The notes: generated by a model not told the origin, from the letters alone. Positions 4,071-14,066 are shown, counted from the first letter of the stretch. The stretch: DNA of 64,000 nt from Cladosporium halotolerans (GCF_011745625.1 NW_027191452.1:744001-808000), one strand, 5' to 3'. Made by a program: numbers and translations.

Positions 4071-5415
4071 TCACCCAAGATAATACACGGTGCCCTCGAA
4101 AAGCCTCCGGGCTGTACGGAAGACCGTGACCTCCTCTGCTTCTCCATCCGTTCCCAGTCGAATATCCACGTCCATGTCTCCGCCCGGATGCCTCAGCTTG
4201 ATCTGCTCGAGATCGAGCGGACCATTGGTGCCCAATCCAAGCTGAACCTTCTCAGAGATTCGGGATCGATTGCGGATAGAGTGAGCCAGAGTTCCTTCAG
4301 TGCACGCTGCTGTTCCCAAGCACACGGCGCCTGTCAATTGAAGGCTTCCGTGGACTTTGCCCATCGAGTAGGCGACAACCTCGACGTCGGGTGAGGGAGC
4401 GCCTTCTTGTGATTCAGGCTCCTTGAGAATCGCAATTTTGGGAGTGCCTCTGGTGAGCGCTGCCTTCTCGACACTGCTAGCCAAGCCCATGAGCACCGCT
4501 GCCTGTCTTCGAACACTCTCGATGAACTCGATAGACTCTGCTGCACCGGGACCTTGTTCGCGGAAGCAGTTCGGCAGTGAAAGCTCGTTTACAAACACGA
4601 AAGGGTTGGCTGCGTCCACTATGCTGACTTGAACGGGAATGGGCGTGGGCTCAGCCGCGGTCTGACCGAAGATGATGTCCGTGGGACGACCGGTTGGGAG
4701 AAGCTTTCCCGTCATCGCACCAGAGGGTTTCGAGAAGGCCATCTTCACACGGCTGCCCATCGATCGAAGCCCGGGTAAGATGCAGTCGCCGTCTTCTAGG
4801 AAATGCCCTTCCTCATCAACTTGCACATTCTCAATCAAGAGTGAGTTTGTGTTTGTGTTGAAGACCCTAACTTGAACCTGAGAAGACCATTGATTAGCAT
4901 TCTGGGGACTTTTCCCAAACTGAGCATAGCGCATATTTCGTAGCAGTCGGAAACCACTAGCACAAATGCCCGTAGTGACACAATGCGGAATCTGATTGAC
5001 TTACTTCTTGCTGGCCAGGCTTAGCTTTCACTATTCCTTCATCGACTGCAAAAGGGCCAACACCGGATGCGATGTTACCGCAGTTACCAGTCAAATCGAG
5101 CTTTGGGCTCCCGATCGGTACTTGAACGAACGTGTAATCGACGTCAACGCCAGGACGCTGTGATCGTGCGACAACAGCAACCTTTGAGGTTGTAGACGTT
5201 GCTCCACCGATGCCGTTTAGTTGTTTAGGATCGCAATCATACGAGCCCATAATGCCAGTGATGATTGGCGTCCATTCATCTTGGCTCTGGGGTAGGTCTT
5301 GTCGGTGAAGGTAAAGACCTTTAGAAGTACCGGCTCTCATCCATACTGCCGGAAGTGCCTTACGCCTCTTCGTGACCTTGGTAGGGTTTACAGCGGGTGC
5401 AACGAAGCCAGGCAT
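4071..5415 (-). CDS. PrpF/DUF453-family isomerase (aconitate/methylaconitate delta-isomerase-like), 2 exons
   Basis: WMRAGTSKG, GGATSTTSKVAVV, catalytic GNCGNI, VDAANP, SMGKVH and RTARRLFEG motifs; exons 5415-5005 and 4877-4071, intron GTAAGT...CTAAT...CAG. Confidence 0.9.
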
Positions 5416-5632
5416 GATGGGATAGTAATCGATTGGTATGCGTGGAATCACAACTGCTTCGATGTGTCGGATTGCGGACTTGAACATGACTGTTCGCAAG
5501 CCAAAGAAGATATTTGCCGAGGCTGTACCCCATTTTAATGATGCCAGTCAAAATACCCACTCGGTTACTCCGTTATGTTCAGGCTCGTGGATGTTTGGAT
5601 GCTTCGTAATGGAGGCCATGGCGGCGGATTTC

Positions 5633-5655
5633 CCGCGGAACATCAAATTCCGTGG
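5633..5655. promoter_or_regulatory. Putative Zn2Cys6 binding site CCGCGGAACATCAAATTCCGTGG (CGG-N11-CCG) in the PrpF/MFS divergent promoter
   Basis: 21/23 identical to the reverse complement of 12017-12039. Confidence 0.7.
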
Positions 5656-5900
5656 AATTCTGTCGCCCGAACATTCATCCAGGAAGAATTACTCTCCCAA
5701 AGTCAAATCACGGCCGACGCTCCCGCCCGGAAATCGGCTCCAAGGTTCGAGATGATGATACTGCGGGGCAAAGATGGAGATGACCCCATGGGCGGGTATG
5801 TCAAGCCTCTTGATAAAGGCTTGGAGATTTCCAAGCGTCTTGGGTGTCTTGGGTATCTGCACAAGTCGTTGTGATTGTCAATCGCCTCTCGCCATACGCC

Positions 5901-11727: not shown

Positions 11728-12016
11728 TTTGAGTGAATTGACAGTTGCGTCGGCGCCGATTTGTCTGCTTGAAACCTGATGACAGTGTCTACAATGCGGC
11801 TGATTTGAACAAATGTGAAATTAGTTTTGTACTTCACCCTTTTCGACGATCGACCCATTATCAGATCTCCATGCCTTCTACACCCGGATATTACGGATTT
11901 TCGTCTGCCTCGTCTACTGCACCCACCGAGTGCTGTTCTGACATTGTTCCGCGGATGAGAATACACTATGGTCTTACTAATGCCCGACAACGATGGTAGT
12001 GGAGCATCCGTGTGTA

Positions 12017-12039
12017 CCGCGGAATTTGCTGTTCCGCGG
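12017..12039. promoter_or_regulatory. Putative Zn2Cys6 binding site CCGCGGAATTTGCTGTTCCGCGG (CGG-N11-CCG) in the carrier/MFS divergent promoter
   Basis: Reverse complement CCGCGGAACAGCAAATTCCGCGG matches 5633-5655; extra half-site TGTTCCGCGG at 11945-11954. Confidence 0.7.
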
Positions 12040-12363
12040 CCTAACGTGCAACACCCAGCCATCGGCAGACGCCGCGCCTAGAGCAAAGTTCTCTCGCCAA
12101 GTAACCTTACACTCGGTAAGTCACCGAAACAGACGGTTTTTCTTAACGTGGCGTGAGCGGGGAAGCCCCATGGGGTATGCCATGTGGGTTCTATCGCTGG
12201 TCAAGATTCCTTGGCGACAATGGTTGGCAAGAGTACTTGCGGGAGATGGGTAGCCGCAAGAGAATACTAAAGGGATCTGAACATCCTCGAAGATGAGGAC
12301 CAGAACTCCATCACCTCGCCACTGAGTCACAGCAAGGCATTACCTTGAGAGTCCACTATCACC

Positions 12364-14066
12364 ATGGCCACCGAGAAAGACGAGAGGATGTCCACCGAGA
12401 AGATCGACGTCGCGATCGATACGAGCGAGACTGTCTCGCCGTCTGCCATCCAGGCCAGATTCGAAACCCTTCGAGACCTTGATGATGAGCAAATGGCTGC
12501 GCTCAACAAGCGTCTGCTCCGTCGCATTGACTGGCGCCTCATGCCGACAATCACCATCATGTTCCTGATGAAGTAAGATGCCTGACATGCAAGACTTCGG
12601 ACTATCACTCACGATCATACAGCTATCTCGACCGCATCAATGTATCGAACGCGAGACTGGCGGGTCTCCAAGAAGATCTGAACATGTCTGACACTGTGTG
12701 GAGCGCCGGCATCTCCACCTTCTACGTTGGCTACCTTATCGGTCAGCTCCCCGGTAACCTCTGGCTAGCCAAAGTGCGCCCTAGTCTTCTTCTTCCTGGA
12801 ATGATGATCGGTTGGAGTATCTGCACAATCTGCATGCCGGCAGCTACTTCTGGTGTCGGTTTCTGCCTCGTTCGATTCGTCACCGGCCTTTGCGAAGCAC
12901 CTTTCTTCCCCGGCATTACACTCAGTGAGTCTCAAACGCCCCTCCAAACCATTGCAGAAGCTGACTCTCATCAGTGACATCTTCCTGGTACACCAAAGCC
13001 GAGAATCCGATGAGAATGGCCGTCTGGCATGCTGGCAACACAATCTCGAACATCATCTCTGGTTTCCTCGCAGCTGGTATCCTTCACCACATGGGAGGCA
13101 TTGCAGGTCTTTACAGGTGAGGCAATCATGCGGTCCTACATGTAGATCATGAATTGATGCTGACAATCTTCTGAATCAGCTGGCAATGGTTCTTCATCAT
13201 CGAGGGTGCCGCCAGTATCCTCGTCGGCATCGTCGCGTTCTTCCTCCTCCCCGATTGGCCCGAGAACACTCGCTGGTTGACTCAAGAAGAGAGGGAAATT
13301 GCACAGTACCGTGTCCTGCTCTCCAACGGCGGCAAGGAGGAACAAGTCGGAGGCACCTGGGATGGACTCAAGGAAGCCGTCAAGGACCCCTTCACCTGGA
13401 TGTTCTGCGGCATGCACTTCTCCCTCATCAATGCCCAGTCCTTCAAGGATTTCTTCCCCTCGGTACGTCGAACACACTCCCAAAGCGCTCCGTACCACAC
13501 ATACTGATATTCACCAGATCATCAAGACCTTCGGCTTCTCCGAGCTCAACACCTACCTCGTCCAGGCACCCCCCTACGCCATCGCCTACGCCTGCGCCTG
13601 CGCGCTCGCCTGGAGCTCCGGCAAGTTCCGCGAATCGTGCTACCACATCGTGGTCCCGATCGTGATCTCCGCCGCCGGCACGGCCATCATGATCTCCACC
13701 CCGAACATCGGCGCGCGCTACTTCGGCGCCGTCCTACTCGTCAGCGGTACCTACAACGGCCTCAACCTGCAGCTCTCGTGGGAGACCACGCTGGTCCCGG
13801 CCCCGCGTAGCAAGAAGGCGGCTCTGATCGCCATCGCCAACTGCGTCAGCCAGTGCTCTCACTGGTTCTCGCCGTACTTCTTCCCGACCGCGCACGAGCC
13901 GTTCTACAGGCTCGGTGGTGGCTTGATCCTCTTCGGCTGCCTGTGCACTGTTCTGCTCTGCTTTGGCGTCAAGTGGTGGGCCAAGAGACTCAACAAGAAG
14001 CTTGATGCTGCTGAAGGGTACAGTGAGCACAGCGGTGTGGAGAGAGGATGGCGCTTTGCCTACTAG
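12364..14066 (+). CDS. MFS anion:cation symporter family transporter (Dal5/Tna1-like carboxylate permease), 5 exons
   Basis: LLRRIDWRLMP, YLDRINVSNARLAG, EAPFFPG, SSWYTKAE and WQWFFIIEG motifs; introns about 12573-12621, 12925-12974, 13117-13179, 13463-13517. Confidence 0.88.

Follow-up and report, generated by a model that had tools for sequence, protein, structure and literature searches.

A cluster of five genes at positions 4071-14066 of a 64,000-nucleotide stretch of Cladosporium halotolerans DNA (GCF_011745625.1 NW_027191452.1:744001-808000; hereafter the window) encodes a PrpF-superfamily isomerase, a sugar-porter-family MFS transporter, a probable anion:cation symporter (ACS) family MFS transporter (MFS2), a Ctp1-like mitochondrial tricarboxylate carrier and a Zn2Cys6 regulator. 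It is read here as an inducible regulon that would import an unsaturated tricarboxylate, most likely trans-aconitate, isomerise it to cis-aconitate and feed the mitochondrial tricarboxylic acid (TCA) cycle, a prediction to which a probability of about one half is attached. Part of this reading, and held at the same even odds, is the view that the genes are an old Pezizomycotina cluster under common regulation, which assimilates its substrate with a single enzyme.

The set of one enzyme, two symporters, a carrier and a regulator points to an external compound that needs only one isomerisation to enter the mitochondrial TCA cycle. Trans-aconitate is a fitting candidate because the known aconitate isomerases (Adi1, TarA and TbrA) belong to the PrpF superfamily, because the bacterial Tar system follows the same regulator-importer-isomerase logic, because Ctp1-type carriers handle tricarboxylates, and because the best match of Adi1 itself is likewise an oxalomesaconate tautomerase. 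Uptake is favoured over export since both MFS proteins appear to fall in symporter families and ctpB, the Aspergillus niger gene whose type the carrier appears to share, is silent on sugar.

In the proposed mechanism, the ACS-family MFS, joined in some lineages by the sugar-porter MFS, would take up the acid by proton symport, as family membership suggests. The PrpF-family enzyme would then convert trans-aconitate, its presumed substrate, to cis-aconitate by an allylic rearrangement through the conserved Lys and Cys, and the CtpB-type carrier would bring the tricarboxylate into the matrix, where aconitase would consume it. The Zn2Cys6 factor is predicted to activate all five genes by binding CCGCGG-core sites, which are observed to be enriched. 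Isomerisation may take place in the cytosol or in the matrix, given the basic, acid-free N-terminal extension of the enzyme.

Conservation of the cluster among ascomycetes

The first-pass annotation of the window had expected the genes to be co-located in other genomes, and despite rearrangement they are, in many genomes and contigs of several ascomycete classes. Metagenome contigs and named genomes from at least four classes share the gene content, which stays constant while gene orders and orientations differ (at least six arrangements). The five-gene co-location is far beyond chance. The best protein matches come from Dothideomycetes (Aureobasidium, Cladosporium, Ramularia) at 63-69% identity. 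Adjacent locus tags are found in Aureobasidium pullulans (D6D01_03451/03454), A. subglaciale (E4T38_08672/08675), Zasmidium cellare (PRZ48_000264/000266), Cercospora zeina (BST61_g9487/g9488), Exophiala aquamarina (A1O9_03571/03574), Pyricularia grisea (MCOR25_007935/007936), Paraphaeosphaeria sporulosa (DPSP01_008587/008588) and Verticillium albo-atrum (ACHAQA_000748/000749). Pairs on the same contig occur in Glarea, Cadophora, Rhynchosporium, Bisporella, Leptodontidium, Corynespora, Didymella, Pseudovirgaria, Pyrenochaeta, Talaromyces proteolyticus and Verticillium longisporum, and the carrier and MFS2 genes adjoin each other in many genomes.

A metagenome scan with a single PrpF protein gave 231 pattern matches, none of which was confirmed by tblastn. 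Scanning with an alignment of PrpF relatives yielded 59 loci, against which the five protein models were run by tblastn. Among the 27 loci of at least 6 kb, the regulator stands directly beside PrpF in 23; the carrier is present in 14, MFS2 in 13 and the sugar porter in nine, and two further loci (L052 and L056) hold a Sugar_tr open reading frame recognised by Pfam. All five genes stand together in L004, L007, L009, L010 and L020. These numbers include near-duplicate loci, namely L007/L009, L015/L016, L025/L026, L029/L031, L038/L040/L059 and L054/L056. Loci in which PrpF has no partner are either cut by a contig end (L008, L054) or solitary (L041, L042). In the related metagenome loci, no further type of enzyme is found repeatedly next to the set.

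In a distant clade (L050, L052, L053, L056), whose PrpF proteins are 33-39% identical, the order is sugar porter, PrpF, regulator, carrier, MFS2. Trees of PrpF and of the carrier, from quick IQ-TREE searches with SH-aLRT support only, match fungal taxonomy, which fits vertical inheritance. As a side observation, L052 additionally holds an aldo-keto reductase.

A shared promoter element

In the window, the 10-mer CCGCGGAACA occurs three times, always within the two divergent promoters of the cluster, and of the five copies of the 8-mer TTCCGCGG, four lie there as well. The total of five TTCCGCGG copies in the window is not above chance (shuffle mean 3.08; 19 of 100 shuffles reach five), and for this 8-mer it is the placement alone that is informative, not the count. 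The fifth copy, at 18862, lies in the 5' part of what is probably a hybrid histidine-kinase gene; it seems unrelated. In the eleven closest loci that carry TTCCGCGG, all 16 copies are situated in the 5' flanks of cluster genes, two of them abutting the 5' end of the regulator match. This specificity was rejected for distant loci: copies lie outside the cluster in L029/L031, L041 and L042, inside PrpF in L032, L033, L036 and L045, and 3' of MFS2 in L052.

In an unbiased ranking of all 7-mers, CCCGCGG came first, with 33 copies in 12.1 kb of cluster promoters from six loci versus six in 76.8 kb of background, related loci not being fully independent in such counts. Seven of the 34 CCGCGG copies in the window fall in the 5' intergenic regions of the cluster (binomial P 4.5e-5). 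CCGCGG is likewise concentrated 5' in L004 (5/7), L007 (5/9), L010 (6/6), L020 (4/6), L022 (3/3), L024 (8/8), L025 (5/10), L028 (4/6) and L049 (6/9); in L016, L029 and L038 the enrichment is not significant. That promoters hold several sites each, and that these are kept even where protein identity is only 45-50%, speaks for a functional element. CGG-type palindromes are what Zn2Cys6 factors bind. The common CCGCGG-core element argues for co-regulation of the cluster, presumably through binding by the cluster's own regulator.

Two other sequences were noticed in the same promoters. The 10-mer ACCCCATGGG has only two copies in the window, at 5783 and 12167, one per divergent promoter, and CCCATGGG is found in the cluster promoters of three of four close loci and not at all in the background.

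The isomerase

Both halves of the isomerase match PF04303, at 1.2e-37 and 1.5e-41: the profile is matched by exon 1 with 143 bits over positions 4-113 and by exon 2 with 130 bits over positions 117-369, the cut-off being 27. Among solved structures, exon 1 is nearest to GalD, a 4-oxalomesaconate isomerase (1.3e-30), and 3-methylitaconate isomerase (8.1e-30), followed by YbhH and PrpF; exon 2 is nearest to methylitaconate isomerase (6.4e-24). PrpF, Mii (3-methylitaconate isomerase) and GalD/LigU have the PF04303 fold family and the catalytic Lys and Cys in common with the window enzyme. The Lys (in TSKVAVV) and the Cys (in GNCGN) align with the positions changed from K to M and from C to S in the GalD structures 6p3h and 6p3k. 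They also correspond to K73 and C107, which SoPrpF requires according to the available part of its description (PMC5690661).

Unlike PrpF, Mii and GalD/LigU, the fungal isomerases carry a basic N-terminal extension. In the orthologues it comprises 19-56 residues with 3-9 Lys/Arg and 0-3 Asp/Glu, and the basic patch stands directly ahead of the first conserved strand; the N-terminus of the window enzyme is encoded at 5356-5415. The composition suggests that the extension may be a mitochondrial presequence. If so, the carrier would import trans-aconitate itself, and isomerisation would take place beside aconitase. A Verticillium dahliae protein, VDAG_01341 ('VdMIase'), at most a candidate orthologue of the window isomerase, is named in the literature with no substrate.

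The mitochondrial carrier

The carrier contains three Mito_carr stretches (180 bits, 6.1e-54), and its top matches are named SLC25 citrate transporter or tricarboxylate transport protein. Two Ctp1 homologues are known in A. niger. According to Table 1 of PMC6829807, the housekeeping homologue is ctpA (An11g11230), expressed at 246-388 FPKM in strain H915-1 and at about 140 RPKM in AB1.13, and ctpB (An18g00070) is nearly silent on sugar media, with values of 0.5-3.7. In the accessible part of another study, ctpB transcripts were absent in one A. niger strain and appeared late in another, and the protein can carry citrate (PMC9512666). Being scarcely transcribed on sugar and capable of carrying citrate, A. 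niger CtpB behaves as expected for an inducible paralogue, and the best A. niger match of the window carrier appears to be this protein.

That match is named 'Contig An18c0010', the location of ctpB, not An11, and no CtpA-type protein is present among the best 120 carrier matches. The window carrier therefore appears to be of CtpB type, judging from the contig name. The first-pass annotation had treated identity with the housekeeping CTP1 orthologue as fatal to its proposal; the match on the ctpB contig points away from such identity, as far as an assignment by contig name goes. In Talaromyces proteolyticus there are two carrier copies, one of them on the PrpF contig.

Transporters and regulator

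Both MFS proteins appear to belong to symporter families, the sugar porters (TIGR00879) and probably ACS (TIGR00893), in agreement with the earlier suggestion that they come from mainly importing families. The sugar-porter MFS matches PF00083 with 243.8 bits (4.4e-72) and TIGR00879 with 227.3 and 70.9 bits on two pieces, the cut-off being 237.8. For MFS2 the best NCBIfam model is TIGR00893 (ACS, TC 2.A.1.14), with 74 and 52.7 bits on two exons, single exons being unable to attain the cut-off of 395. Relatives of MFS2 are named 'Vitamin H transporter family' in Atlas. Its orthologues are 65-91% identical across Pezizomycotina; at the same loci PrpF reaches 36-50% and the regulator about 45%.

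The regulator matches PF04082 with 42.3 bits (6e-11; cut-off 23). Its zinc cluster, CX2CX6CX5CX2CX6C, is split by intron 1 and visible only in the spliced model.

Transcript support

Contigs of four public sequencing runs were aligned to positions 2501-16500, and one of them, X3, consists of spliced transcripts from a relative that is 95-99% identical. Seven of the ten introns are backed by spliced X3 RNA contigs with GT..AG joints: the PrpF intron, both regulator introns (8969-9018 and 9992-10041, in a 2375-nt spliced contig) and all four MFS2 introns (in a 1774-nt spliced contig). The 3' part of the carrier gene lies under an X3 RNA contig (10659-11043). The transcripts thus bear out the models of the PrpF, regulator, MFS2 and carrier genes, which are expressed and, where they have introns, spliced as predicted. 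The three sugar-porter introns were placed by GT..AG ends and reading frame alone.

As a separate observation, run X2, from a relative 95-99% identical, includes a 12-kb DNA contig that joins position 11668 to 12336 on opposite strands, which indicates an inversion breakpoint within the carrier-MFS2 promoter region of that strain.

Known systems and alternative functions

A bacterial parallel is the TarR/TarA/TarB system of Bacillus velezensis FZB42, which, in the available part of its description (PMC11495376), combines a dedicated regulator, an MFS importer and a single PrpF-superfamily aconitate isomerase whose product enters the TCA cycle. The two are likened by gene content. The window has a Zn2Cys6 instead of a LysR regulator, two MFS proteins versus one, an added mitochondrial carrier, and, in place of an operon, genes transcribed as individual units with divergent promoters. 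By this comparison, the fungal cluster may be regarded as an analogue of the Tar system and not as a member of it. The carrier would have been added because of compartmentation, and in function the cluster would be the eukaryotic counterpart.

The Ustilago maydis itaconate cluster comprises Adi1, Mtt1, Itp1, Tad1, Ria1, Cyp3 and Rdo1 in the accessible portion of PMC4720413. The resemblance to it drawn by the first-pass annotation holds for the PrpF-family aconitate isomerase (likened by family), the Ctp1-like mitochondrial carrier, the presence of an MFS and a pathway regulator. It does not extend to the type of regulator, which is Zn2Cys6 in the window versus bHLH, or of MFS, which are sugar-porter and ACS types versus EmrD-like. 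In addition, the window has no Tad1 decarboxylase, P450 or dioxygenase, and the direction would probably be opposite.

Several observations count against trans-aconitate assimilation. The promoters of the distant clade L050/L052/L053/L056 lack the CCGCGG element or show no concentration of it; Aspergillus terreus possesses an MFS2 orthologue; and the cluster is also present in rock-inhabiting and lichen fungi, for which no plant source of trans-aconitate is evident. Others bear on a serious rival, considered unlikely, in which the cluster would produce trans-aconitate for secretion, the product perhaps acting as an antifeedant, nematicide or aconitase inhibitor; here the carrier would export cis-aconitate from mitochondria for isomerisation to the trans form in the cytosol, and one or both MFS proteins would release it. 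The U. maydis cluster has the same carrier, PrpF isomerase, MFS and regulator, with Mtt1 working exportward, and the aconitate equilibrium is 88:12 in favour of the trans form (both from the available part of PMC4720413). In engineered A. niger, the combination of MttA, TbrA/AdiA and AexA is enough for trans-aconitate to be secreted. Because TarA and TbrA can replace each other, the direction is not fixed by the enzyme (PMC11495376, accessible part). Moreover, the related L038 loci look biosynthetic: in L038 (1-16300), L040 and L059, orthologous PrpF and regulator genes lie beside a CadA-like MmgE/PrpD-family gene and a P450, accompanied by an MFS_1 protein and a mitochondrial carrier that differ from those of the cluster. 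Their PrpF groups with that of the lichen fungus Lambiella (Lecanoromycete-like). The content of these loci looks like that of an itaconate-type biosynthetic cluster around the same isomerase-regulator pair. Export is disfavoured by the apparent membership of both MFS proteins in families known mainly as proton symporters for uptake (TIGR00879, TIGR00893). To our knowledge, these taxa have not been reported to secrete trans-aconitate, a point at which no search was aimed. The exporter Itp1 is described as EmrD-like in the available part of PMC4720413.

It is doubtful, too, that the same architecture serves another substrate, such as itaconate, citraconate or mesaconate, (methyl)aconitate isomers, 4-oxalomesaconate from gallate or lignin aromatics, or citrate or isocitrate taken up with the isomerase as an accessory. 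In its favour, the best PDB and NCBIfam matches are 4-oxalomesaconate and 3-methylitaconate isomerases, against which the window enzyme scores higher than against PrpF. Scanned separately, its exons reach 110.4 and 74 bits with TIGR02334 (2-methylaconitate isomerase PrpF equivalog; cut-off 440.55) and 132.1 and 110.9 bits with NF033377 (4-oxalomesaconate tautomerase equivalog; cut-off 440); falling below both cut-offs, the enzyme is on these scores a subfamily of its own. The carrier-MFS2 pair is widely adjacent, MFS2 (65-91%) is far more conserved than PrpF (36-50%), and A. niger CtpB can carry citrate, as noted above. Yet the gallate/oxalomesaconate route needs a dioxygenase, a hydratase and an aldolase, none of which is co-located, and a carrier of Ctp1 type suits tricarboxylates. 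The proven aconitate isomerase Adi1 likewise finds its best match in the Pseudomonas putida oxalomesaconate tautomerase (PMC4720413, accessible part), and such similarity is therefore no argument against aconitate. Very improbable is the absence of any common function, with five unrelated genes standing side by side by ancestral synteny alone. Close relatives do retain the Rad51/Dmc1-family gene beside PrpF, so local synteny is generally conserved there; however, this neighbour is found only in the closest relatives and the link is lost beyond them, whereas the cluster persists through at least six orders and several classes, and its common promoter element ranked first in the unbiased k-mer test.

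Implications

Grasses and soils contain trans-aconitate, an aconitase inhibitor, in abundance. The carriers of the cluster include many cereal pathogens and leaf-surface yeasts, and the assimilation reading bears on how fungi handle this compound. A more specific version of it, advanced tentatively and at somewhat less than even odds, is that the cluster, passed down vertically since early Pezizomycotina, would be the first eukaryotic regulon for trans-aconitate/tricarboxylate assimilation, in which the ACS MFS would be the plasma-membrane importer, the CtpB-type carrier its mitochondrial partner, the isomerase possibly mitochondrial and the CCGCGG-binding factor the sensor of the acid. If this is true, MFS2 would be the fungal plasma-membrane tricarboxylate importer that has so far been missing, the role of a dedicated mitochondrial import partner would explain why ctpB of A. 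niger is silent on sugar, and an isomerase inside mitochondria would directly shield aconitase from its inhibitor. The reading also gives a simple testable function to a widespread fungal 'DUF453/PrpF' protein, and likewise to a highly conserved orphan Dal5-family transporter and a puzzling second Ctp1 paralogue. For organic-acid engineering, the cluster would offer natural parts, namely an importer, a carrier, an isomerase, a sensor-regulator and a promoter element.

No description of this fungal cluster was found in full-text literature searches. The text of the Tar paper (PMC11495376) contains neither the stem 'fung' nor 'eukaryot', and according to a paper of November 2026, A. niger has no known native aconitate isomerase.

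Gene layout and flanking region

A Pfam scan of open frames over 3370-15703 recovered five complete genes in 4071-14066, for which protein models of 405, 521, 754, 299 and 494 amino acids (aa) were built (Table 1). The regulator lies between two divergent pairs, PrpF/sugar porter and carrier/MFS2. The contiguous arrangement given by the first-pass annotation was thus recovered with all coordinates and orientations as claimed.

Table 1. Features of the cluster and its flanks, in window coordinates
Feature	Position	Strand	Details
PrpF-superfamily isomerase gene	4071-5415	-	405 aa; 2 exons, 5415-5005 and 4877-4071; intron 4878-5004; PF04303
Divergent promoter, PrpF/sugar-porter MFS	5416-5900	.	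TTCCGCGG/CCGCGG at 5633-5640
Sugar-porter-family MFS gene	5901-7671	+	521 aa; 4 exons, 5901-6308, 6409-6659, 6716-6964 and 7014-7671; PF00083
Zn2Cys6/Fungal_trans regulator gene	7740-10104	-	754 aa; 3 exons, 10104-10042, 9991-9019 and 8968-7740; PF04082
5' region of regulator gene	10105-10827	.	three CCGCGG sites, at 10207, 10229 and 10277
Ctp1/SLC25A1-like mitochondrial tricarboxylate carrier gene	10828-11727	-	299 aa; intronless; three Mito_carr repeats
Divergent promoter, carrier/MFS2	11728-12363	.	TTCCGCGG at 11947, 12017 and 12032
Probable ACS (Dal5/TtuB-type) MFS gene, MFS2	12364-14066	+	494 aa; 5 exons; MFS_1, TIGR00893
Rad51/Dmc1-family gene	ends 3867		flank; PF08423, 2.1e-62
RRP7	14756-15703		flank; Pfam scan

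No decarboxylase, whether Tad1/CMLE-like or CadA/PrpD-family, lies within 4071-14066, which contains just the five genes, as had been noted before; the flanks hold a Rad51-family gene, RRP7 and a histidine kinase. Of the flanking genes named earlier, DMC1 and RRP7, the latter was found, and the recombinase can be placed only to the Rad51/Dmc1 family. Beyond RRP7, open frames extend over 18744-19937, 20033-22279 and 22239-23768, the latter two with HisKA, HATPase_c and receiver domains, and together the frames at 18744-23768 probably constitute a hybrid histidine-kinase gene.

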